In this document: piece after piece, positions 3,344 to 27,414 of the stretch
Numbering within the stretch: position 1 is the first letter of the stretch
How the letters are laid out: every line of letters starts with the position of its first letter
Source of the DNA: Escherichia phage vB_Eco_mar003J3
Length of the DNA stretch: 64,000 nt
Sequence record: NC_048203.1
Strand: one strand, 5' to 3'
The notes under the pieces: model-generated
What the model saw: only the letters and a program-made list of their open reading frames with translations
Told to the model about the DNA's origin: nothing
Databases searched by the model: none
Position numbers and translations under genes: made by a program

Positions 3344-4307
3344 TGTAAAAGACTTTATTAAACGTTGTCAAGAAGCGTACTACCAGGGAATGAGTCTTAT
3401 TTCCGATGAAGAATATGATCGTCTGATTAAAAGATTCCCACTAGAGGAAGAAATCGGACCGAAAGGTGATATCCCTCATTTGTATCGTATGTATTCTTTG
3501 CAGAAAGTCTATTACGATCGTGGTGATAAAGCTCCATTCAACCCACTTGGTCAGGTTGAAACTGATAAGTTAGATGGTTGTGCGATTTCTCTATTATATA
3601 TTAATGGTGAGTTTGTTCAAGCGTTAACTCGTGGTAACGGTATTCTAGGAAATGATGTAACGCATAATGTTAAAATGCTGAACATCCCCAAAACTATTTC
3701 CCAAAAAGTACCAACTCAAATCACTGGTGAAGTTCTCATTACTAAAGAAGTAGAGAACAAACGTAACTATGCTTCTGGTGCTATTAACCTGAAAGATAGT
3801 GATGATTTCATGCAACGTATTGGTGAAGGTGGTTTAATCTTCGTTGCATATGGTATCCAGTGTTCAGCGGAAACAGTCGGTATTACAGAAGCCTATTTAA
3901 AAGATATGCTTTGGCTAGAGAATGAGAACTTCTTGACAGTTGTTAATGTTCGTTCCTTTTTTAAATGGATTCCGACGGACGGTAAAGTTGTTCGTATTAA
4001 CGACAACAATAAATTCTTCCGTGAAGGTTGGACTAATAAATTTCCTCGTGGTGCATTTGCTATTAAAGAGGATGAAGAAGGCGAAATTACCACACTTGTT
4101 AAAGTTGAATGGCAAGTAGGGGCTTCTGGTAAAGTAACTCCAGTTGGTTATTTCGAGCCGGTGATTATTGATGATGCCACAATCGTTAAAGCAACTCTTA
4201 ATAACGTTGATTATATTAACGCTCTCGATTTAGAGATCGGTTGCCAGATTCGAGTGATTCGTGCTGGTGGTGTAATCCCTTGTATAGTAGAGCGAGTATA
4301 CGACTAA
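3333..4307 (+). CDS. NAD-dependent DNA ligase, N-terminal (adenylation/OB) subunit
   Basis: KLDG adenylation motif in VETDKLDGCAISL, typical LigA N-terminal region; ends before the Zn-finger/HhH/BRCT part. Confidence 0.8.
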   Translation: MMNNVKDFIKRCQEAYYQGMSLISDEEYDRLIKRFPLEEEIGPKGDIPHLYRMYSLQKVYYDRGDKAPFNPLGQVETDKLDGCAISLLYINGEFVQALTRGNGILGNDVTHNVKMLNIPKTISQKVPTQITGEVLITKEVENKRNYASGAINLKDSDDFMQRIGEGGLIFVAYGIQCSAETVGITEAYLKDMLWLENENFLTVVNVRSFFKWIPTDGKVVRINDNNKFFREGWTNKFPRGAFAIKEDEEGEITTLVKVEWQVGASGKVTPVGYFEPVIIDDATIVKATLNNVDYINALDLEIGCQIRVIRAGGVIPCIVERVYD

Positions 4308-4357
4308 TTCGTAACCCTTTGCTACCCGTTTACCATGTCGGAATTATAAAGTGGTTA

Positions 4358-4386
4358 TTGACATTTTCGCCGCTTAGGTATATACT
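4358..4386 (+). promoter_or_regulatory. sigma70-like promoter
   Basis: TTGACA-17 bp-TATACT in the spacer between the two ligase ORFs. Confidence 0.45.
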
Positions 4387-4450
4387 ATTATCATTCAGTT
4401 GAGGGATAGAAAGTTATGGCGAGGGTAAGCAAAGTTAGTTAAAATTGTAG

Positions 4451-4479
4451 TTGCTAAATGCTTAAATACTTGTTATAAT
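4451..4479 (+). promoter_or_regulatory. T5-type sigma70 promoter
   Basis: TTGCTA-17 bp-TATAAT followed by ATTTATATAAATTGATAAGGAAG. Confidence 0.65.
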
Positions 4480-4509
4480 ATTTATATAAATTGATAAGGA
4501 AGAAATTTG

Positions 4510-5289
4510 ATGAAAATCGAAATTCCAACACAATGTCCCTCTTGTGGTTCTAAGCTAGATCTTGTCAACGGGCAATTATTCTGTAGGAATAAGTCCAACT
4601 GTCCAGCACAATCAAGTAAGTTAATCGAGAACTTCTGCACAAAAATGAAGTTAAAGGGCTTTGGCCCGAAAACTATTGAGAAGCTGGAACTGACCAAGAT
4701 CTCAGAACTGTTTTACCTGACCGAAGAAGATTTGGTCGGAGCTGTGGGTAGCAAGGTTGCCGCTAAGTTGATTAGCGAGTTAAATACTAAGGTTCGCGGA
4801 GACATTGACTTTGGTTCGGTTCTCGGTTCTTTAGGAATTCCTCTTATTGGAGAGGTTGCAGCAAAGAAACTGTCCCAAAATTGCACTAGCTTCCACGATG
4901 TGAAGGCTGACGGCAAGGCTGGAGAAAATTACAAAACCTGGCTAAATTCCCCACAAGGCAAGGATGTTATTGAATTACCCTGGAAATTCTCAACTGGTAT
5001 TCGAGGTACTAAAGCTGATATCATCATTACGGATGATTTAGTTGCCCAGCCAAATGGAATCACGATCTGTATTACCGGATCTTTGCAAGATTTTGCAAAT
5101 CGAACGGATGCAACAAACTATTTAGAAAGTCTAGGATATACGGTTAAGAAATCCGTTACCAAAGACGTCAAATACCTAATCTGTGAGGATGAATCAAAAC
5201 GTTCTTCCTCATCTTATAAGAAAGCCGAAACGAATGGGATAGAAATCCTGTCGATTAAAGAACTATTGGAGAAAAATAATAATGTCTAA
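4510..5289 (+). CDS. NAD-dependent DNA ligase, C-terminal (Zn-finger/HhH/BRCT) subunit
   Basis: CPSCGSKL...C...C zinc finger, helix-hairpin-helix region and C-terminal BRCT-like segment; ATG 4510 with AAGGAAG RBS. Confidence 0.8.
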   Translation: MKIEIPTQCPSCGSKLDLVNGQLFCRNKSNCPAQSSKLIENFCTKMKLKGFGPKTIEKLELTKISELFYLTEEDLVGAVGSKVAAKLISELNTKVRGDIDFGSVLGSLGIPLIGEVAAKKLSQNCTSFHDVKADGKAGENYKTWLNSPQGKDVIELPWKFSTGIRGTKADIIITDDLVAQPNGITICITGSLQDFANRTDATNYLESLGYTVKKSVTKDVKYLICEDESKRSSSSYKKAETNGIEILSIKELLEKNNNV

Positions 5290-6049
5290 ACTGAACTGGA
5301 ACGTAGAAGGTGTAACCGAGTCTCTGAAAGCAAAAGCCACTGCTCTGGGTGTTGCTGTAATCTCTCAAGAACAAGTAGCTGCTATCGCTGCTGAACTGGC
5401 TACCGAGACTGGTAAAGACGTTACCGCTCGCTCTGTTGGCTCTAAGCTGCGTAAAGAAGGTTTCGAAGTACAGAAAGCTAACGAAGTACAGAAATCCCCG
5501 TGGACTCCTGAGCAGGAAGCTGAACTAGTTGATTTCCTGAACGCTCATGCTGGTCAGTATACTTACGCTGAAATCGCTGCTGCTGTAGCTGGTGGTCAGT
5601 TCGGTACTAAGCAGGTACAGGGTAAGATCCTGAGTCTGGAAATGACTGCTTCTGTTAAGCCAACTGAAAAAGCTGCTGCTGTTCGTTCCTTCACTCCTGA
5701 CGAAGAAACTGATTTCGTTAATCAGGTTGTTGCTGGTGCTACTATTGAAGCTATCGCTGCTCACTTCGGTCGTAATATTAAGCAGATCCGTGGTAAAGCT
5801 CTGAGCCTGCTTCGTGAAGGTCGTATCGCTGCTATGCCGGTACAGGAAACATCAAGTGCTAAGACTCGTGAAGATCTGTTAGAAGGTCTGGATCTGGCTT
5901 CCATGACTGTTGCAGAAGTTGCTGAGAAAACTGGTAAGTCTGAGCGCGGTGTTAAATCTATGCTGTCTCGTCGTGGTCTGGTTGCTAAGGACTATGATGG
6001 TGCTGCTAAGCGTGCTAAACTGGATGCAAAAGCTGCGGCTGCTGAATAA
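5282..6049 (+). CDS. D5-like DNA-binding protein (three internal repeats)
   Basis: 255-aa Ala/Lys-rich protein with three repeated ~70-aa units; size and position resemble T5 D5; inference. Confidence 0.5.
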   Translation: MSKLNWNVEGVTESLKAKATALGVAVISQEQVAAIAAELATETGKDVTARSVGSKLRKEGFEVQKANEVQKSPWTPEQEAELVDFLNAHAGQYTYAEIAAAVAGGQFGTKQVQGKILSLEMTASVKPTEKAAAVRSFTPDEETDFVNQVVAGATIEAIAAHFGRNIKQIRGKALSLLREGRIAAMPVQETSSAKTREDLLEGLDLASMTVAEVAEKTGKSERGVKSMLSRRGLVAKDYDGAAKRAKLDAKAAAAE

Positions 6050-6066
6050 TCTGGTAAATTAAACCT

Positions 6067-6098
6067 AAGGGGAGGGGGCTATGCTCCTTCCCCTTTTT
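6067..6098 (+). terminator. rho-independent terminator
   Basis: GC-rich imperfect hairpin (AAGGGGAGG...CTCCTTCCCC) followed by TTTTT. Confidence 0.55.
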
Positions 6099-7604
6099 GC
6101 ATTTAGAAGGCACGAAAGCGTGCAAAGGAGAATGACCTTGTTTAACGTGCAAGCTGTAGTGTTGAAGATGCTTCTCGCTTCTGAACAGAAGCAAATAGCA
6201 TTGGAAACATTCTCAAAACTGCATAAAGATCATTTTAATGACGCTTTCTCCTCAATTTACCAAGCCGTCCAGAATTATTATAAGAAATATAACGCAATGC
6301 CGTCCATTGACGCACTGATGCTTGAGGCCAATAGGAACGCCCGCCTTTCTCAAGCTCTTGTCGTCTTAGCTAACACTCAAATTCCAGAAGTGAGCATGGA
6401 ACAGGCACTTGAAGTCCTAGAAGCTGAATATACACAGGATCTATTCCTGAAACTTCTAGAAACAGACGTGCTTCAAGATTTAACAATGCTGGATCAGGGA
6501 GAAATTCTCAATCGAGTTGCCTCCCTTCACTTAAAATTAGAAGAGAAAGTAACGAATACTGGAAAGGTATTCAACGCAGACACAATGCGTATTTTCCAGA
6601 GAGAAGAAGATACCAAACTGAACTTGATCGCTCTTGGTATTTGTAATGAGTTCGACGCTCAAATTGGTTTAGCTCGCACAGAAACGTTACTGCTTGGTGG
6701 TTGGCGTGGTACTGGTAAATCCATTATCTGTTCAAACATACAGGTTCAGCAATATTTGAATGGGGATATTGCTCCATACTTCTCAATTGAGATGAAAGAA
6801 CATGAAGTATTTAGACGTAATCTAGCCATGTTAGCTGGCGTATCAGCACTAGCAATGCGTAATAATACTCTAGAAGGTGCAGCTCTGTTGAGATTAGCCA
6901 GAACTAGAGCTAGGATGTTTAACGGCGGTGAAGAGCTTTTCGATAACTTCGTTAAACAGTACACAATGGCTAAGATGAGTGATTTCTACGATATGGAAAG
7001 TAAGCTAATAGAAGGGTATGAGCTACATACTCCTATGATTATTGTTTATGACCCTGAACTGTCCATTACAACAGTTGACGTAGAATTAAATAAATTAGTT
7101 GCTAGATATGGTGATAAAGTTACAGTAGCTTTACTGGACTATATTAACCAAACCCGACTTCCAGACTCTAAAACCATTGATATGTATGACTGGAAAGAAC
7201 AGATGGTTGTTAGCTCGTCTTTCAAATCTATCTGCCAGAAACATAACGTGGCTGGTGTAGCCCCTTACCAGATCGATCAAGATGGTAGAACACGTATGTC
7301 AAAGGGGATTCTTGATTCCGCAGACATGGCTGCTAATCTTAATGCTGCAAAAGCTGATAATGGTCAAGGTGCTATTATGTTTGACTTCGTTAAGACCCGT
7401 TCTTCTGATAGCGTGAAGTTTATGCCTAAAATGAACTGGGAAACCCTACGGATGGATAACACTACCAACCTAGCAATGGAAGATATATCTCAAATGGAAG
7501 CTGAGTTCGTTATCCCTATTGAGAAGGATAAGCCGGCTCAATCTAAACGTGCTAAGAAAGACAAAGCTGAAAATTCAACAGGTGAACAGGCCAGCGATAT
7601 ATGA
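6081..7604 (+). CDS. DnaB-like replicative helicase
   Basis: Walker A GWRGTGKS and RecA-like core; listed ATG 6081 lies inside the terminator hairpin, so the true start is probably downstream (e.g. MTLFNVQ). Confidence 0.75.
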   Translation: MLLPLFAFRRHESVQRRMTLFNVQAVVLKMLLASEQKQIALETFSKLHKDHFNDAFSSIYQAVQNYYKKYNAMPSIDALMLEANRNARLSQALVVLANTQIPEVSMEQALEVLEAEYTQDLFLKLLETDVLQDLTMLDQGEILNRVASLHLKLEEKVTNTGKVFNADTMRIFQREEDTKLNLIALGICNEFDAQIGLARTETLLLGGWRGTGKSIICSNIQVQQYLNGDIAPYFSIEMKEHEVFRRNLAMLAGVSALAMRNNTLEGAALLRLARTRARMFNGGEELFDNFVKQYTMAKMSDFYDMESKLIEGYELHTPMIIVYDPELSITTVDVELNKLVARYGDKVTVALLDYINQTRLPDSKTIDMYDWKEQMVVSSSFKSICQKHNVAGVAPYQIDQDGRTRMSKGILDSADMAANLNAAKADNGQGAIMFDFVKTRSSDSVKFMPKMNWETLRMDNTTNLAMEDISQMEAEFVIPIEKDKPAQSKRAKKDKAENSTGEQASDI

Positions 7605-19632: not shown

Positions 19633-19664
19633 CCCCAGTGGATTATCCACTGGGGTTTTCTTTT
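19633..19664. terminator. bidirectional intrinsic terminator between convergent early and late units
   Basis: CCCCAGTGG-ATTA-TCCACTGGGG hairpin with T-run on + strand and A-run before it. Confidence 0.7.
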
Positions 19665-20931
19665 ACTTAGAACTTCTTAGTGCATTAAGTTCTCTCTGCA
19701 TATATTCTAACTGTTCCTTATAGTCCACTATTTGTTTTTGTAGTTCCTGTACAACTGTGATAATATCAGCCATAACAGCCTTATCATTTACGTTTAGAAT
19801 CTCAAATTCTTTTCCATTATCATCTACAGACTGACCCCCACTAAAAACATAAATAGGGTCAATAGCTTCCATCTGCTGTGCTAAATACCCACGCTGGGGA
19901 ACTACATTTCCTTTATATGTGAATTCTACAATCCCTATTTGTTCAATTCGTTCCCACGCACCCGATTTCGGCAATTTAAAATTGTCTTTGATACGAACAT
20001 CAGAACCTTGAATAGCAACTTGCCCTAAAGGAGTATGCATTGTGCTGTCCGCTCGCATAGAATACCAGAGATTTATATTATCAGATCTTGTTAATTGCCA
20101 TGTATATTGTGCGACTCCATCTACAGTATAAATGTAGTTGGCTACCGTACAGTCAGAGTTTTCAAGATGGGATAACTTGTTATGTCTAACACCGTCTAAC
20201 GACTCTTGGCTTTTTAGCTTTACAATTGTAGCAGTGTATGCGTCAGAATTCCCAAAAAGTGCTCGAGCTACAAGGTTTGATTGTGTTTCTAATCCATTCT
20301 GTGGTAGTAAAGTCCCTGGTATATAAAGGTGTCCATTAGAATTAAAACGCATTACTGCTGTATTTGTTCCATGTGCTTCAACCCTTGCTTCGGTAATTCC
20401 ATTTCCAATTGCTGCTTGTGCGTAGAAATCTGCACTAAAGTTATCGGTAGCTCCTACTTTATACTTTGAACTAACTCTGCCACCACTTACTACAGTATTC
20501 ACTGGGGGTAATACTGCATCGGCATTGTTAACACTCCAAGAAGTATTTGCCGCAACAAAACCACCAGATGCACGAATAACCCAAACACCAACAAAACTAC
20601 GTGGCAATATGTTGTTTTTTATTGAATATTTTCCATAGACTCCATCACTGGCCCCAGCGTTAATTGTTAATACTGCGTTGTTTCTTACTCTGCTAAAAGT
20701 ACCATCATTAGGTAAAAATGTATCTTCAACTGCAGAATTATATCCGAAAGCTCCGCTTACAGCTTTAGGTGCTGGTTGCCAAACTTTTCCGCTTGTATCG
20801 TTTGCTGCCGTACCATAAATATTAGGTGCTGCCGCTTCATAGACACGCCCATCTTCGGAAGAATTACCACCATCACCACGCCCAAAAAGACTTAACGTAG
20901 AATTTGGTTGCGCACCGTTCCGGTCAGGCAC
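19663..20931 (-). CDS. distal L-shaped tail-fibre protein (LtfB-like), C-terminal segment with intramolecular chaperone domain
   Basis: C-terminal ...AVMADIITVVQELQ... matches the C-terminus of the neighbouring fibre protein; listed start is GTG and the frame is open upstream to an in-frame TAG at 21013-21015. Confidence 0.8.
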   Translation of the reverse strand: MPDRNGAQPNSTLSLFGRGDGGNSSEDGRVYEAAAPNIYGTAANDTSGKVWQPAPKAVSGAFGYNSAVEDTFLPNDGTFSRVRNNAVLTINAGASDGVYGKYSIKNNILPRSFVGVWVIRASGGFVAANTSWSVNNADAVLPPVNTVVSGGRVSSKYKVGATDNFSADFYAQAAIGNGITEARVEAHGTNTAVMRFNSNGHLYIPGTLLPQNGLETQSNLVARALFGNSDAYTATIVKLKSQESLDGVRHNKLSHLENSDCTVANYIYTVDGVAQYTWQLTRSDNINLWYSMRADSTMHTPLGQVAIQGSDVRIKDNFKLPKSGAWERIEQIGIVEFTYKGNVVPQRGYLAQQMEAIDPIYVFSGGQSVDDNGKEFEILNVNDKAVMADIITVVQELQKQIVDYKEQLEYMQRELNALRSSK

Positions 20932-21012
20932 ACGGAATGTAGTAGATCCGTTACCCGTTGAATACCTACCTCGTTTTTCTGGGTCAGCAAGCCATTCAGC
21001 ATCGGAAATAGG

Positions 21013-21888
21013 CTATAACATTTGAGCGTATGCCCACAATTCAGGCCAGTCTGCGCGATTTAGCAATTGACCATCTGATAAGACTTCATATGGTTGAATA
21101 TACGCACGACTATCACGAAGATGGAAATCACCAACGCCATAGTTCATTACACCATTCATTGTCGGGCCGACAGTGCCTGTATTTACAAGGTTTTGCACCC
21201 AACGTTTCGTCGCTGCATCATAATCGTTAACTGGATCACCAGACAGTGGGGTAGGACCTTGGGGCCTAACAACAGACCATAAAGCTTCCCTATTGGTTAC
21301 TCCTGTACCTCCCTGTTCAACAGATAATGATATCCACTTGTTTTCTACGTCACTATACGCACCCCAAGCACCTGAATTCTGAATAGTTAACCTTGAGCTT
21401 TTATCTCCACTATACACTCGAGTTTCTGTTCCAAATTCCTGGCTAAATCTATCAAGTTCTAGTGCAGTTTTAGCCCCATCTACAGTAGAAGAACCAGTAC
21501 CACCCTGAGCAATAGTAATAGCTTTGGTAAGTGAATTTAGTTCTGTAATATCGTTATTAGCACCCTTACCTGCTTTAGTATCTAGGCCAGTATTAATACT
21601 CTCAATGGATGTGTTAATACCACCCAAGGCAGAATTAATACCACCAATAGACTCGTTAATGCTACTAACAGACTCATTAGTATTGTTAATAGAAGTATCA
21701 ATTCCACTTAGACGAGTGTTTAATTCTTGCTGATCTATATTATACTTAGAGATTTGTAAGTATTTAGAAGTTAATACAACAGCACCAGCCTCTCCATCAA
21801 CAGAGAAAACACCAGCAACAGCAGCATCTCTGTTAACTACAATATATGGCGCCATTGCGCCAGATTTAGGCATTAAATTACGTGACAT
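21013..21888 (-). CDS. distal L-shaped tail-fibre protein (LtfB-like), N-terminal segment ending at an in-frame TAG
   Basis: Repeats GINTSI/GGTG; C-terminus DGQLLNRADWPELWAYAQ is the first half of a collar-like domain whose second half (GNGSTTFRVPD) lies 21 codons downstream in the same frame. Confidence 0.8.
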   Translation of the reverse strand: MSRNLMPKSGAMAPYIVVNRDAAVAGVFSVDGEAGAVVLTSKYLQISKYNIDQQELNTRLSGIDTSINNTNESVSSINESIGGINSALGGINTSIESINTGLDTKAGKGANNDITELNSLTKAITIAQGGTGSSTVDGAKTALELDRFSQEFGTETRVYSGDKSSRLTIQNSGAWGAYSDVENKWISLSVEQGGTGVTNREALWSVVRPQGPTPLSGDPVNDYDAATKRWVQNLVNTGTVGPTMNGVMNYGVGDFHLRDSRAYIQPYEVLSDGQLLNRADWPELWAYAQML

Positions 21889-22286
21889 AAGATTTCCTAA
21901 TAAGATTAGAATTACTCCCTAATCTCTTGTAAACTTTTAGAGTAAAGTGCGAGTCCCTTCGCACAATAGGTTATTATGGAGTATTTTTTATTTTACTCAC
22001 TTCTGTTTCAAGTGTGGACACACAGTTAACTAAAGCTAGAGCTTGATTTACTTCCGTAAGAAGTTTCTTAAGAGTAGTAATCCCTCCCTTTAAGCTATCA
22101 ATTTCTTTTGCTTACTGGTCATTTTCATCCCTTAGCTGAAGAAGAGCTTCATGGTGTAGTACTCTGTCTTTTCATCGAACATGATGTTGTCCGCATATTG
22201 CCGAGTTTGATCGGACTGTATACTCACAACATCCGCGCGGATGTAAAAACCTGCAACAGCATGGTTTAGGAGGAATCCAAATGGTG

Positions 22287-24929
22287 TTACTTTTGTAACA
22301 TCAGATTAACTAGTTCTTTAAGCTCTGCGACTTCTGACTTCAGCGTTTCGATTTCCGTATTCTTTCTCTGTAACTCCTGAACGACGGTTACTACATCCGC
22401 CATGACCGCGCGGTCATTTACGTTCATTATCTCAAATTCATTACCGTCATCACCAAGAGCGGTCCCCCCAAAGTAAGTATAGGTATCGTCGATATCAGCC
22501 ATTTGCTGTGCAAGAAAACCGCGCTGACGGATTTTACTTCCGTTATAGTAAAATTCCATGACACCTATTTTAGCAATCCTTTCCGCTGCGCCATCCCTTG
22601 CAGGAGCAAAGCTATTCTTAATGCGGATATCAGATCCTTGGATGGCGACGCGCCCTTCAGGGGTGTACATCCCGTTATCTGCTCGGATCGAAAAATATTT
22701 AATATCAAGACCTGTTACGTCCATCCTTGTTACAAACTGTTGTTGTGAACCTCCTGGAGATACAAGATAGTGATATATTTTTGTTGTGTTATTTTCGACT
22801 TGGCTCAGATAGTTGACGTTATCCGCGTCCGTCGACGATCTATCCGCTTTTTTTATGACCGCCGGGCCGAAAGCGCCATCACGGCCCGAAAATACGCGCC
22901 CCCGGGCTTCACTCTCACATGACATATTGCCATCAGAGTCTATCGCCAAAATAGCCTGTTTAAGTACGCCACCGATTCTGGATACTGCTGATATGCGAGT
23001 CACCACCACTGACGACCCTTTCGTCGCAGCCACGGACATCGACGCATCGGCGATATTAACGCCGTTTTCGGATAGTCGGCTAGTCAGCCACCCGCCCGCC
23101 GTAGCCCCCGCAGGTAGAACAGTCTCCTTATGTACGACCTGCAACGTGTCCTGGATATTAGGGTTAGTCACCTTTTCCAGAACCCAGCCACGCGTCGCGG
23201 CATCCATCTCGCTAACTGGATCTGCTGCTAATGGCGTGGCACCTACTGGGCGGACGTTAAGCCAAGCAGCGGCGCGGTCTGCGAGATCGCTCAAGTTATT
23301 TGCTTTCTTGAGTACATCTGAAGAAGCTGGAACTTCTAGGGCAGTTCTAGCCTCTTCTACTGTAGAAGCTCCGGTACCACCTTTATTTATCGGGATAATA
23401 TCTTCTACAGAGGCTTCTCCAAGTCCTAAAGCTGATCTTGCAGTCTCAATAGTAGAAGCTCCGGTACCACCTTTATTTATTGGGATAATATCTTCTACAG
23501 AGGCTTCTCCAAGTCCTAAAGCTGATCTTGCAGTCTCAATAGTAGAAGCACCAGTACCTCCTTTAGCTACAGGTAAAATTCCCTCAAAACTATCTGTAGA
23601 AATGGCAATATTAACAGAACCATCTGCAGAAGGTCCAATCCCATTAACCATAGTAATATACGGAATTTGTTCCTTAATAGCACCAGCGTTTTCCTCGCCT
23701 TTTGCAGCAGCACGGAATGCTTGACCCTGCATCATATCAGGTAGACGGAAAGTAGTAGTACCATTACCAGTGGAGAAATAGAGAGTTGCACCAGCTTGCC
23801 ATTGTTCCTCAGTAACCGAAGGGATTAAGCCAGCTTCAATAGCTTCCCAAGTATCTGGGTAGTCTACACGTAGAACCTCACGACCATCAGCAGGAAGAAC
23901 ACCAGGGTACCCAACGCCTGAATCCTTATCATAAGGGAACCAAGTAACTTCACCTAACCACAGAGAAGGATTACCACCAGGAAGAGTAATCTGTATGTTA
24001 CCTACATCATCTGCACGAACGTTATTAATAGAAACTATCTTTTGCTCTGCCTCTACTAACTCTAATTCTGGAGTCTCAGCAGTTCCAGCTACTTTGTACC
24101 ACCCATATTTTGAGTCAGTTTGGTTCCATACTAGGATCTTTTCACCTAGTGCGCGACTACTAACGTCAGTATCTGCTTCTTCTTTGGTCTTGTAGACTTT
24201 GATAAAGCCAGATATATCTTCTTTATCCAGTTTGCTATCTACAATCTGAGTAGCACGATCTGCCTCAGCTTTAGCACGATCTGCCTCAGTAGTAGCATCG
24301 ATAGCTTTATCGCCAGCTTCAGTAGCAGAACCAGCAGCATTAGTTTCAGAAATCTTAGCGTTTAGTTCTGATTGCTTAGCAGCAGCAGCATGCTCACCAG
24401 CAGTTGTTGCAGCAGCATCGGCTCCTTCTTTAGCAGTTTCTGCACCAGTTTGTGCAGTTTCAGCGGCTACTTGAGCTTGTTGAGCAGCAGTTTTAGCTTG
24501 TTCGGCTAGTTCTCTACTTCTTTCAGCATTTTGAGCAGCTAACTGAGCCGCATCTTTGTGTGTGCCGGCTTCTGTAGCAGATGCAGCGGATTCTTCAGCG
24601 CTAGCCTTAGATAATCCAGCTTGTCTCTCAGATTCCGTAGCAGAAGTAGCTGCTTGAGTAGCAGAAGCTTCAGAAGAATCAGCGTAAATAGCAGCTCTAT
24701 TTTCTGAGTCTCTAGCGTTAGTTTCAGATAATTTTGCTGCAATTTCAGAATCTTTTGCAGCAGCAGCTGAAGCTGCGGATGATTCCACAGCCGCAGTCAG
24801 TTCACCCGCAGTAATAGAACTGATAGAGTTACCTAAAACTACTGTATATTTAGGATACTTACTAGCAGTAGTTGTAGTATCATCTATGTTCAGAATCTGC
24901 TGTACAATAATTTTAGTTTTAAGTGCCAT
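22287..24929 (-). CDS. proximal L-shaped tail-fibre protein (pb1/LtfA-like) with C-terminal intramolecular chaperone domain
   Basis: 880 aa; Ala-rich coiled-coil N-terminus, GGTGASTIE repeats, collar-like DGREVLRVDYP...GNGTTTFRLPD, C-terminal AVMADVVTVVQELQ. Confidence 0.85.
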   Translation of the reverse strand: MALKTKIIVQQILNIDDTTTTASKYPKYTVVLGNSISSITAGELTAAVESSAASAAAAKDSEIAAKLSETNARDSENRAAIYADSSEASATQAATSATESERQAGLSKASAEESAASATEAGTHKDAAQLAAQNAERSRELAEQAKTAAQQAQVAAETAQTGAETAKEGADAAATTAGEHAAAAKQSELNAKISETNAAGSATEAGDKAIDATTEADRAKAEADRATQIVDSKLDKEDISGFIKVYKTKEEADTDVSSRALGEKILVWNQTDSKYGWYKVAGTAETPELELVEAEQKIVSINNVRADDVGNIQITLPGGNPSLWLGEVTWFPYDKDSGVGYPGVLPADGREVLRVDYPDTWEAIEAGLIPSVTEEQWQAGATLYFSTGNGTTTFRLPDMMQGQAFRAAAKGEENAGAIKEQIPYITMVNGIGPSADGSVNIAISTDSFEGILPVAKGGTGASTIETARSALGLGEASVEDIIPINKGGTGASTIETARSALGLGEASVEDIIPINKGGTGASTVEEARTALEVPASSDVLKKANNLSDLADRAAAWLNVRPVGATPLAADPVSEMDAATRGWVLEKVTNPNIQDTLQVVHKETVLPAGATAGGWLTSRLSENGVNIADASMSVAATKGSSVVVTRISAVSRIGGVLKQAILAIDSDGNMSCESEARGRVFSGRDGAFGPAVIKKADRSSTDADNVNYLSQVENNTTKIYHYLVSPGGSQQQFVTRMDVTGLDIKYFSIRADNGMYTPEGRVAIQGSDIRIKNSFAPARDGAAERIAKIGVMEFYYNGSKIRQRGFLAQQMADIDDTYTYFGGTALGDDGNEFEIMNVNDRAVMADVVTVVQELQRKNTEIETLKSEVAELKELVNLMLQK
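23361..23540. repeat. two near-identical 90-bp tandem repeats inside the tail-fibre gene
   Basis: Copies 23361-23450 and 23451-23540 differ at one or two positions; diverged third copy flanks them. Confidence 0.9.
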
Positions 24930-25351
24930 TATTGAGTTACTCCATCGCTGATGTATACTTTACCTTCCATAATACGGAAAGAACTGACTTCAGAGCCAAT
25001 TACATCACGAGTCATTAGGATATCATAATAACCAGCAAAACGTTGTCTTGGGTTATACTTATCACGTTCTTTAGATGCTTTTTCACCAATATTAGTAACG
25101 TCTGCAACGGAAAGACTAATTGCAGCAGCACCTTGAGCAGCATCAATAACACGAGTTTTAAAGTTAGCTAGAACCTCGGCGTTCTCATCTAAACTAGACT
25201 TAATAGTTCCTCGGAGTGAATATCCGGTTAAGTTAACAGGAACTTCTGTTGGTGGATATACACTGTCATCAACATCCATAAACTGCATGATAAGACCATA
25301 AGGTACTTTCTCATCAACAACAATATCAATAACTCGGTTTTCTGTACTCAT
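24929..25351 (-). CDS. collar protein (p132-like)
   Basis: 140 aa; position between pb4 and fibre gene; TAATG overlap with fibre gene start. Confidence 0.6.
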
Positions 25352-25356
25352 TATAA

Positions 25357-27414
25357 TTACCTTATATGGATATACCCACTATTTAGGTCTATCTTCATCT
25401 TGTAGTATGCTTCAGGGTTCCCTGATAACGCAGCATTTCTATCGTAGATTATATTAACACCGATTTGTGATAAGAAGGCATTTCCTGCCACAATCTTATC
25501 CGCAGTAACAGTTCCATTAACAATCATATTGCCATGAAGAACCATTGCAGGGTTAATCCATCCAGCTCCGTTCCACTGACGGGTAAATGCTGTTTGTGGA
25601 GCATTACTGTTAAATTGTGTTAGAACATCGTATTTAACCGGAGGTTTTCCAAAGTTATTTTGAAAGAATGCGTTAGCTTGTCCATCATCCCAACCGCCTA
25701 ATCCAGGAATACCCATGGAGTACATCCCAGGACCACGCTGTCCATCATGTCCTATAGTACCTTCAGTACCACTCCATTGAACTACATCAGACCAGCTAGT
25801 ACCTTCAAGAAGTTTGTTAGTAACTGGATCAAGTGTACCTGTAGTCGCATAGATATTTTGTGTCATATCTGTACGGTTAGGTGGAGTTTTTGACCAACCA
25901 GGAGGTGGATAATCTTGTTCTAGCGGTTTGGCCGGTAAAGATGTTGCTAACTTATAAACAAATACTGTTTGCTTACCTTGTAAACCAGTTCCAATATCTA
26001 CGTCACCATTTGGTGTTCCAATCACTACACCACTAGAAATACGCAGAGTAGTACCATCATAACGTATCCATTGTGTAGCATTACCAATGTCTAACTTAGC
26101 TTTGGCAGAGGTATTATCCATACCCATCCAAATACCAGAGTTATTATCCCCCCAGGATTTACCTTGAGTGTAAATTGCTGGGTTATCTTTACCAGACAAG
26201 TTAGTCATGATAAAGTTCGCAGCATTAATATCTCTAGTAATTACTTTACCATCAACGTTAACAACACGGTTTATAGGGTCAAAAGAAATAGGTGCTTTAC
26301 CTTCTTCATCTAGCAGACCAATGTTAATAGCACCAGTAGCTGCATCAATTAGGAATGTTTGTCTCCAGATTTCCCCATCTTTCATGCTGCCTTTAATAAA
26401 GGCATAGTTAACATCAATACCCGTCTCATTGACAAAACTATTATCTAGAGGAGTATCTTCATTCAGAATAAACGTTACAGGAGCTGACTCTGTTATATCT
26501 TGTTTACTTGGTCCCCAGGCAATTGATGATACCTTAAAAGTATGTTCAACTTTCCATGGGAATGATATAATTGTTGCAGCTCTGGCAGCACCCACGTTTA
26601 TCTTTTGAGCTTTAGCCCATCCGGTTTTAGCATATTCCTCGGAGTTTATGTAAGTAACCAAGAATTCACGAACGTTAGCACCAGCACCACGTTCCCAGTC
26701 CCACTCAATTCTAACATCATATCGTTCTTTACCATCAGCAATTCGTGCAGCTTTAAAAACAATATCGATAGGTGCAGTAGGAGGAACAAAATTATAAGCT
26801 ACAGTTAGAATATTAGTGAACTCATAGTACCCAGAAGAATCAACTGTAACACCATCAGGCATAGTTACTTGACCAGATATTCTGATCTTATAATCTCCGA
26901 TAGGAACTCCACCAAATTTAATAGTAGAACCTAAAGCCCCAATATAATATTTAGTCCATGGACTGTCTTCAGTGGCTGTACTTTTTAACTCAATAGTACA
27001 GTAGCTTGCTTCACCAGTTGTTTCCACAACAACTATTGGTGCGCCCACCCCAACATCCACAGGTTCTGACTCAGATCTTGCTGCAACAATTATTGGCTTC
27101 TCTTTTGTTTTAAAGTTAGTTTCATTAGAGAGGTTAATACCAATTTTTGCATTTAAAAGTTCTGAGTCAATAATTGAGTCATAAAAAGCTCCCTGAACCT
27201 GATAGGTAGTTGAGGGAGTTAAGTTATTGATCATAACAAAGAAAGTGTCGATTCCAGTGAAATCTCTTCTATCCACTTCTTCGCCAAGTTTAAGCCAGAA
27301 TGATCTACCGATAACATCGTAGTCGGTATAGATAGAATGCTGGATATACGCCATAGTATATCCAGTCATAATACTATTTAAGACCATCTTGGCTGGTGCA
27401 TTATTCGAAATCAT
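25357..27414 (-). CDS. tail tip protein pb4-like
   Basis: 685 aa; synteny pb3-pb4-p132-ltf as in T5. Confidence 0.7.

Follow-up and report, generated by a model that had tools for sequence, protein, structure and literature searches.

A three-unit 90-bp repeat array in the lateral tail fibre gene ltfA of Escherichia phage vB_Eco_mar003J3, apparently inherited and partly homogenised by gene conversion

The closest described counterparts of the gene studied here are the ltfA genes of phages DT57C and DT571/2, which form branched lateral fibres and carry ltfA at the same position in the order pb4-ltfC-ltfA-ltfB (PMC4728585; PMC10713586). The structure of LtfC from DT57C has been described (PMC10713586), and aa 223-471 of DT57C LtfA were proposed as the region that contacts LtfB (Golomidova, 2016; PMC4728585). 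Behind the gp14-like domain these proteins possess a slot holding perfect DNA-level tandem repeats, as does the gene of vB_Eco_mar003J3. In DT571/2 it contains a 57-bp repeat in 2.4 copies with 100% identity, and an extra repeat copy arose de novo in this slot in a laboratory mutant (PMC4728585). A comparable organisation is found in SU10 gp12 and phiEco32 gp14 (7z47 chain D; PMC9509320), in which a homologous middle domain is directly followed by so-called GGTG units spaced 30 aa apart (aa 486-542). Like LtfA, SU10 gp12 carries a second fibre protein, but it belongs to a podovirus, has another N-terminal anchor and contains two units instead of three, and its repeat region is unresolved in the structure.

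One copy of the same signature, GILPLARGGVGSNTAAGARSTIGAG, is present in the solved Shaft structures of the R1 and R2 pyocins (6cl5, 6cl6, 6ct8), where three interdigitated chains build a thin rod of helix-plus-turn motifs and 70 residues span 93 Å (PMC6116203). Buth et al. (2018; PMC6116203) pointed out that such repeats permit fibre-length adjustment. However, the pyocin Shaft differs from LtfA in its single copy, in a similarity that is restricted to the motif level (E 0.008-0.3), in belonging to a contractile particle and in having no S74 chaperone. An in-frame tandem duplication with variable copy number, situated upstream of the receptor-binding part of a fibre gene, was also reported for Enterococcus phage EfV12-phi1; in contrast to the present case, its units are 1.8 kb long, unrelated in sequence and arose under experimental selection during coevolution (PMC6365445). 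Fibre-length adjustment through such repeats is a real but ordinary route in phages.

We analysed a stretch of 64,000 nucleotides (the window) from vB_Eco_mar003J3 (NC_048203.1), which is a segment of an Epseptimavirus (T5-like) genome. Positions 22287-24929 (minus strand) hold ltfA, the gene for the lateral (L-shaped) tail fibre protein A of 880 aa, which is anchored to the tail collar. The ORF product is identical to YP_009824367.1 of vB_Eco_mar003J3, a protein found in virions by proteomics (PMC6563131). It matches the tail fibre family phrog_5481 (1e-218) and aligns over aa 1-597 with aa 1-588 of DT57C LtfA (PDB 8hqz_d; phmmer, E=7e-257). The original prediction of a proximal tail-fibre gene agrees with this assignment to the tail-attached lateral fibre gene, for which the DT57C LtfA match, the S74 domain and the adjacent ltfC speak. 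Of the two ORFs upstream of ltfA, one contains Pfam PB4 domains and the other the LtfC domain (24929-25351, minus strand; PF23926, E=1.9e-15); the latter is ltfC (p132) and codes for the collar protein by which LtfA is fixed to the tail. The order pb4-ltfC(p132)-ltfA-ltfB occurs likewise in the relatives L001, L002 and L003 and in DT571/2.

LtfA of vB_Eco_mar003J3 is closely similar to the DT57C-type proteins over the first ~440 aa, shares with them the distal linker (NNLSDLADRAAAWLNVRP in DT57C and DT571/2) and the S74 chaperone, but has a different receptor-binding part. Homology to DT57C LtfA includes the N-terminal LtfC-binding segment and the long trimerising helix, and aa 41-230 are predicted to be helical by AF2 (pLDDT 63-84). 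The middle domain (23580-24236, minus strand; aa 232-450) is homologous to phiEco32 gp14 and SU10 gp12, aa 248-542 of the latter (7z47_D) aligning to aa 232-507 of LtfA with E=1e-46; it is the proposed docking region for LtfB, which is defined by homology alone. The conserved linker KANNLSDLADRAAAWLNVRP (23247-23306, minus strand; aa 542-561), aligned and conserved in DT57C LtfA, closes the variable-length slot, and the protein ends with an intramolecular chaperone of the autocleaving Peptidase_S74 type (22290-22634, minus strand; aa 766-880). The chaperone is recognised by Pfam PF13884 at aa 766-813 (26.3 bits vs a cut-off of 22) and modelled by AF2 with pLDDT 73-92. When the C-terminal half of LtfA was used as protein query, distant fibres were the sole matches. 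The repeats and the NNLSD linker are situated just upstream of the C-terminal module swap point. A further ORF (22813-23724) lies on the opposite strand wholly inside ltfA, the product of the latter being backed by strong homology and published proteomics.

Between the middle domain and the linker, ltfA contains three in-frame 90-nt units in codon register on the minus strand. Unit 1 (LPVAKGGTGASTIETARSALGLGEASVEDI; 23487-23576, aa 452-481) consists of a diverged head, A0, and a tail, B; unit 2 (IPINKGGTGASTIETARSALGLGEASVEDI; 23397-23486, aa 482-511) of a head A1 and again tail B; and unit 3 (IPINKGGTGASTVEEARTALEVPASSDVLK; 23307-23396, aa 512-541) of a head A1' and a diverged tail C, which gives the overall pattern A0-B-A1-B-A1'-C. 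Units 1 and 2 have tails identical at 63/63 nt and diverged heads (18/27 nt), units 2 and 3 heads identical at 26/27 nt and diverged tails (34/63 nt). Tandem Repeats Finder reports a repeat of period 90 at 23362-23565 (2.3 copies, 96% matches, score 380). With the two copies in optimal register (23362-23459 vs 23452-23549), 97 of 98 bases are identical, with 23391 vs 23481 as the sole mismatch, and the near-identical stretch covers 188 nt. The longest exact self-match in ltfA has 68 nt, compared to 9-12 nt after shuffling its codons (20 shuffles). The near-perfect 90-bp tandem duplication claimed in the original prediction is real (88/90 identical bases between 23361-23450 and 23451-23540), and so are the diverged third copy, with three in-frame units at aa 452-541, and the repeated 30-aa units, the peptide quoted there corresponding to aa 481-510. 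Its span of 23270-23560 captures the array but sets the upper limit too low, as unit 1 reaches 23576. A contingency (phase-variable) repeat locus was considered and rejected, because gain or loss of a unit keeps the reading frame and only about two identical copies exist (~2.1 near-identical copies of the 90-nt unit of 30 codons).

The comparison with related phages is informative about the age of the array. The phages vB_EcoS-26175 I-V and Citrobacter phage YZU-L1 match the whole ltfA without any 90-nt gap; they have three units, with unit 2 differing by A500V and V508T, and the Logan protein P0345 has three units with unit 2 in the same state. The nearest relatives, whose flanks are 99-100% identical to vB_Eco_mar003J3, are thus three-unit phages with a diverged unit 2. 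The more distant relative L003 has two GGTG units and, at four of the sites clustered in the putative conversion tract described below, carries the allele (B') that L001 and L002 have in unit 2. Since vB_EcoS-26175, YZU-L1 and P0345 already possess three units, the sequence comparison indicates an inherited rather than a new array. Hence, of the "very recent duplication or ongoing conversion" that had been suggested, the first part is not supported, the three-unit array being common to phages from Austria and China and to a Logan contig, and the second gains support from a 26-nt paralogous cluster and the diverged middle unit in three independent relatives. Repeat number among related phages, proposed for comparison along with the duplication, does differ: two or three GGTG units are found, and one unit plus 19-aa repeats in LtfA of the DT57C type. 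The ltfA allele is rare and was found in seven GenBank records, two Logan contigs and vB_Eco_mar003J3; exact-pattern scans with three patterns gave no match in IMG/VR, JGI metagenomes and GTDB genomes.

Nine substitutions are specific to vB_Eco_mar003J3 compared with L001 and L002, five of which fall within 26 nt. Each of these five (gene nt 1499, 1518 and 1522-1524) equals the base 90 nt upstream. In the pairwise comparison with L001, 6 of the 14 differences of gene nt 720-2643 are located in 63 nt (binomial P=3.5e-7 at the background rate). On the evidence of these alignments, the clustered paralogous bases are what a recent gene conversion within ltfA would leave behind. The putative tract in unit 2 (minus strand) covers at minimum 23406-23431 (gene nt 1499-1524) and at maximum 23392-23459, and is bounded by gene nt 1470 and 1539, where bases specific to the unit have been kept. 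Changes specific to each lineage amount to 9 in vB_Eco_mar003J3, 4 in L001 and 29 in L002; these counts, together with the paralogous cluster, argue for a derived state in vB_Eco_mar003J3, whereby the direction of conversion was deduced by parsimony and branch lengths from four or five sequences of a recombining gene. By such a conversion, or by unequal exchange to the same effect, 26-68 nt of unit 2 were most likely replaced with unit 1 sequence, which explains why the 63-nt tails of units 1 and 2 are identical. The three-unit state itself may go back to a two-unit ancestor (A0-B-A1-C), a state still found in one relative, from which unequal crossing-over inside the conserved "GGTGA" coding core would have produced the third unit.

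Other origins of the same pattern have to be considered. The 90-bp segment B + A1 could have been copied very recently from a two-unit ancestor, so that its copies are still undiverged. A single unequal crossover leaves exactly the order A0-B-A1-B-A1'-C, and L003 demonstrates that a two-unit relative exists. Nevertheless, we regard such a fresh duplication as very unlikely: the relatives with almost identical flanks are already in the three-unit state with a diverged unit 2, and the single B' tail of L003 differs from B of vB_Eco_mar003J3 at the same sites, so that for an independent duplication one has to postulate another two-unit ancestor, as yet unobserved, with tail B. It is also rather doubtful that vB_Eco_mar003J3 kept an original perfect duplication and that the lineages of vB_EcoS-26175, YZU-L1 and P0345 imported a short L003-like B' patch into unit 2. 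The four B' sites common to L003 do mark B' as an old and importable allele, and ltf genes are highly mosaic. However, the imported patch must be 30 nt long or shorter, because L001 and L002 lack the bases that distinguish L003 at 9 nt downstream and ~20 nt upstream. Moreover, YZU-L1 is by branch lengths the outgroup to vB_Eco_mar003J3 and vB_EcoS-26175, therefore the import would either predate the split of vB_Eco_mar003J3 or have happened twice. Finally, near-identical tandem repeats classically collapse or expand during assembly, and the original prediction had named mis-assembly as possible. That copy number or homogenised sequence was made by the assembler is highly improbable, since every related assembly is of the three-unit type, with equal length in independent assemblies (seven GenBank records, one Logan contig), and since the 188-nt near-identical stretch is shorter than the 2x250-nt reads used for vB_Eco_mar003J3 (PMC6563131). 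In addition, an assembler does not normally swap five true variant bases for paralogous ones. Intragenic gene conversion in an inherited three-unit array hence remains our preferred reading.

At the protein level, all three units fit the pattern x-P-[IV]-x-x-GGTG-A-x-T-x3-AR-x2-LGL and also the broader signature hydrophobic-P/G-[IV]-x2-GGTG-[AS]-x-[TSN]-x3-A-[RK]-x2-L. When 63 units were aligned, GGTG proved invariant, and conservation reached at least 90% at A17 and L21. The unit is present in 1,384 protein clusters at E<=1e-3; its spacing is exactly 30 aa in LtfA, and among 148 representatives the modal spacings are 30 aa (124 cases) and 28 aa (111 cases), with tandem runs of up to 11 units. 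Scans of the repeat segment against Pfam and NCBIfam returned no family for the GGTG unit, so a very common fibre repeat is still without a curated family model. An NCBIfam match to the RcGTA tape measure (E=0.0012; 18.7 bits vs a cut-off of 220) was dismissed. The motif profile matched the R1 and R2 pyocin fibres (6cl5, 6cl6, 6ct8) weakly, with E-values within the range given above, at chain positions ~254-278, which correspond to residues ~573-596 in the Shaft domain. The AF2 monomer contains a short helix per unit (464-470, 493-500 and 524-530), the repeats being modelled at low confidence (pLDDT 30-57), and the solved structures do not cover the repeat region, SU10 gp12 being built for residues 1-90 only and DT57C LtfA for its N-terminal part only. 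In the trimeric fibre each unit may contribute one short helix and turn to a thin rod of interdigitated chains, as in the R-type pyocin shaft, and the GGTG units probably build a thin trimeric spacer rod of about 4 nm per unit. Given the weak pyocin match and the AF2 pLDDT of 30-57 in the repeats, this fold and the length per unit are inferred rather than observed.

An alternative function would be that of binding modules, for the LtfB N-terminus or a host glycan, which would change branching or avidity and not length. Unit 1 falls within the segment of LtfA that corresponds to the proposed contact region for LtfB in DT57C (PMC4728585), and two such units are present in SU10 gp12, to which a distal fibre protein is attached. 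But the longest arrays reach 11 units, the units occur in many fibres without branch partners, the homologous R-pyocin stretch sits in a buried, interdigitated shaft (PMC6116203), and the docking region is known by homology alone. Such a role is therefore unlikely, in our opinion.

The spacer reading fits the variability of this place among relatives. With the linker at aa 542-561 as distal anchor, the distance from QIPY to NNLSD is 93, 114, 123 or 133 aa among related LtfA proteins, and the content of the slot also varies: in DT57C-type LtfA a single GGTG unit precedes 19-aa VDSALADKADIATTYTKME repeats, whereas the slot of vB_Eco_mar003J3 contains three GGTG units but none of the 19-aa repeats. 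Because the same slot holds different repeats and copy numbers in relatives, fibre geometry may be tuned there, namely by gain, loss and homogenisation of repeats. The array would act as a length-adjustable spacer between the LtfB-docking middle domain on one side and the distal linker, receptor-binding module and chaperone on the other. Taken as one explanation, we consider an inherited array, gene conversion and a length-adjustable spacer rod to be likely.

It is a rather unlikely extension that the slot represents a dedicated evolvable "length cassette", in which repeats of either type (GGTG or 19-aa) are held identical at the DNA level by gene conversion. If so, units could be gained and lost rapidly thanks to their DNA identity, and how far the LtfA tip reaches in relation to the LtfB branch could be readjusted as the host O-antigen changes in thickness. 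The slot would then correspond, in a phage, to the contingency repeats of bacteria, but would act on fibre geometry. Our understanding of T5-like fibres is unchanged by this array, which is an ordinary case of something already known. Nevertheless, it offers a clean, small case in which intragenic gene conversion appears to keep tail-fibre repeats identical, and it pinpoints a specific slot in T5-like LtfA that differs in length between phages and accommodates two unrelated repeat types, which is useful for engineering and comparing T5-like host-range modules.

A minor observation concerns the neighbouring ltfB (19663-21888, minus strand), which encodes the branch fibre that attaches through LtfA. 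Its conserved N-terminus is present, the first 291 aa sharing 79% identity with LtfB of DT571/2. No tRNA was found in the 64,000-nt window. Codon 292 of ltfB is TAG, an amber codon (21013-21015) that interrupts the gene, and three relatives have TCG or TCA at the same codon.

The tandem repeat lies in ltfA (22287-24929, minus strand, 880 aa), which is preceded by pb4 (25357-27414) and ltfC/p132 (24929-25351). Next comes an ltfB homologue that shares 79% identity with LtfB of DT571/2 over its N-terminal 291 aa. The window belongs to Epseptimavirus and is approximately 96.8% identical overall to vB_EcoS-26175 and Citrobacter phage YZU-L1. Its LtfA is the same in every residue as YP_009824367.1 of vB_Eco_mar003J3, a protein found in virions by proteomics (PMC6563131). 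The first 597 residues match LtfA of DT57C (PDB 8hqz chain d, E=7e-257), a Peptidase_S74 intramolecular chaperone is located at aa 766-813, and by every feature tested the protein is of the DT57C type. Within the fibre, LtfA is the protein anchored by the LtfC collar, and it presumably bears LtfB as a branch (PMC4728585, PMC10713586); therefore, the original prediction was essentially right in placing the repeat in the proximal tail-fibre gene.

Tandem Repeats Finder reported a period of 90 nt at 23362-23565 (2.3 copies, 96% matches, score 380). The two copies initially proposed, 23361-23450 and 23451-23540, are identical at 88/90 positions, and in the best register (23362-23459 versus 23452-23549) 97 of 98 positions are the same. 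The longest exact self-match comprises 68 nt (20 codon-shuffled versions of the gene: 9-12 nt), which confirms the near-perfect 90-bp tandem repeat as real and well above chance. In the codon register, the array encodes three 30-aa units on the minus strand: unit 1 (aa 452-481, 23487-23576, LPVAKGGTGASTIETARSALGLGEASVEDI), unit 2 (aa 482-511, 23397-23486, IPINKGGTGASTIETARSALGLGEASVEDI) and unit 3 (aa 512-541, 23307-23396, IPINKGGTGASTVEEARTALEVPASSDVLK), each composed of a 27-nt head and a 63-nt tail. Units 1 and 2 differ at 9 of the 27 head nt, including synonymous sites within KGGTG, and have identical tails; units 2 and 3 share 26 of the 27 head nt and have diverged tails (34/63 nt). Judged from the sequence, this pattern, A0-B-A1-B-A1'-C, would be expected if A0-B and A1-C, two older units that had already diverged, had undergone unequal exchange. 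On the plus strand, a 303-aa ORF with a TTG start (22813-23724) runs antisense across the repeat region, most likely a by-product of ltfA codon composition rather than an evidenced gene.

Seven related GenBank records align to the whole ltfA in one piece without a 90-nt gap, and in the alignment the three units occur alike in the window, vB_EcoS-26175II and YZU-L1. In both relatives the unit-2 tail (B') differs from the unit-1 tail at 6 nt, resulting in A500V and V508T, and the same diverged unit 2 is present in P0345, an 880-aa protein from a Logan contig. Beyond gene nt 720, only 14 sites distinguish the window from vB_EcoS-26175II, and six of these are in the 63-nt unit-2 tail (binomial P=3.5e-7). 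Private changes number 29 in YZU-L1, 4 in vB_EcoS-26175II and 9 in the window; five of these nine cluster within 26 nt (gene nt 1499 and 1518-1524, window 23406-23431), and all five equal the base 90 nt upstream. A more distant relative, a 73-kb Logan contig (L003; LtfA protein P0002), has only two units, A0-B'-A1-C, with the B' state at four of the clustered sites.

The distribution of substitutions favours one event within the window lineage. The most parsimonious history would begin with a two-unit ancestor that gained the third unit by duplication before these phages diverged; the two B tails would then have diverged, and B would finally have been copied over B' along 26-68 nt, by intragenic gene conversion or an equivalent unequal exchange, in the window lineage only. 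Less parsimoniously, a patch of <=30 nt may have been imported into the relatives. Hence, the suggested ongoing conversion is supported by the clustered paralogous bases, whereas a very recent duplication is not, as vB_EcoS-26175II, YZU-L1 and P0345 already possess three units with a diverged unit 2. An assembly artefact, also considered in the original prediction, is unlikely because every independent assembly contains three units and because the near-identical stretch of the array measures 188 nt, against 2x250-nt reads for the phage with identical LtfA (PMC6563131).

The repeat unit has no model in Pfam or NCBIfam. A full scan of aa 448-560 against 1.84 billion cluster representatives gave 1,384 matches at E<=1e-3 (284 at E<=1e-10), and among the best 148 of these, units are most often spaced by 30 or 28 aa, with tandem runs of up to 11 units. 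The approximately 30-aa GGTG...AR..LGL unit, matched by these 1,384 clusters (50% identity), is a widespread, uncatalogued fibre repeat and a candidate family for curation. In SU10 gp12 (PDB 7z47_D), a homologous middle domain likewise precedes two tandem units; its model was built for residues 1-90 only (PMC9509320). A profile of 63 units weakly matches R1/R2 pyocin fibres (E 0.008-0.3) at chain positions ~254-278, corresponding to residues ~573-596 of the Shaft domain (constructs begin at residue 323). In the R-pyocin Shaft, three interdigitated chains of helix-plus-turn motifs form a thin rod, in which 70 residues span 93 A (PMC6116203), and by this weak homology each 30-aa unit would add ~4 nm. 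An AF2 monomer has one short helix per unit (464-470, 493-500, 524-530; pLDDT 30-57), and we infer the fold of the units from the Shaft homology and this low-pLDDT model.

Between the proposed LtfB-docking middle domain and the distal linker, LtfA has a slot that we measured from QIPY (aa 421) to NNLSD (aa 544), both of which are conserved. The suggested comparison of related phages revealed that repeat number differs: the slot comprises 93 aa in P0002 (two GGTG units), 114 aa in DT57C, DT571/2 and TrudiGerster (a single GGTG unit and a 19-aa repeat in 2.x copies), 123 aa in the window and YZU-L1 (three GGTG units) and 133 aa in a laboratory-derived fused LtfA-B of DT571/2 (extra 19-aa copy). 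The window fills the same slot with a different repeat than DT57C and DT571/2. The DT571/2 repeat is 57 bp long (2.4 copies, 100% DNA identity), and Golomidova et al. found that a new copy arose in a mutant and located the repeats directly after the proposed LtfB-contact region (PMC4728585); length changes driven by repeats are therefore already known at this slot. Among 120 LtfA homologues, proteins contain 0 to 5 GGTG motifs, spaced by ~30 aa or ~61-68 aa.

We propose that the array would act as a spacer rod that separates the putative LtfB-docking middle domain (aa 232-450) from the distal linker with the receptor-binding part and the chaperone. Its length would shift through unequal exchange in the conserved GGTG-coding core, and conversion would hold adjacent units alike and thereby favour further gain or loss. 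Less probably, the units may form a binding surface for LtfB or glycans. The window repeat is one of a common class of fibre repeats, and perfect tandem repeats whose copy number changes have previously been described at exactly this slot. Experimental coevolution has likewise yielded in-frame tandem duplications in fibre genes (PMC6365445). The repeat is thus a real finding with a neat conversion signature, yet it represents an ordinary case.

The units sit just upstream of a module junction; identity to L003 collapses past ~gene nt 1710. The ltfA-ltfB spacer (21889-22286, 398 bp) is conserved in vB_EcoS-26175II and YZU-L1 and measures only 115 bp in L003. At ~21980-22159 (minus strand) the spacer retains a relic, decayed and interrupted by stops, of the extreme C-terminus of an LtfA chaperone of the L003/TrudiGerster type. 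The relic matches P0002 aa 854-905 (tblastn E=1.6e-10) and was probably left by a swap of the C-terminal fibre module. The Ala-rich coiled coil at ~24300-24840 (gene nt 90-630) is 67-73% identical to vB_EcoS-26175 and YZU-L1, compared to 99-100% for the remainder of ltfA, and phage IrmaTschudi instead shares ~92% identity with the window over ltfA nt 1-1286, which points to a second mosaic patch. The vB_EcoS-26175 GenBank records split ltfA into two annotated ORFs of 696-708 aa and 145 aa (4001-6091 and 6207-6644 in vB_EcoS-26175II) on DNA colinear with the intact 880-aa gene, which suggests a frameshift or sequencing error in those records.

The window ltfB (19663-21888, minus strand) has an in-frame amber at codon 292 (TAG, 21013-21015), where the codon is TCG in vB_EcoS-26175II and L003 and TCA in YZU-L1 (Ser); otherwise, the gene stays in frame and is 99.3% identical to vB_EcoS-26175II. 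The predicted product would be a 291-aa LtfB without the receptor-binding part. This fits relaxed selection if the genome is that of vB_Eco_mar003J3, for which rough E. coli MG1655 served as isolation and growth host, but the amber may also be a sequencing error or be suppressed. GGTG motifs also occur twice within LtfB aa 120-200 (21300-21540), as ITIAQGGTGSSTVDGAKTALELDRF and LSVEQGGTGVTNREALWSVVRP, 62 aa apart and followed by the linker 'VRPxGxTPLxGDPVxDYDAATKRWV', the same as in LtfA. Such shared DNA and protein homology could mediate LtfA-LtfB fusions as reported for DT571/2.
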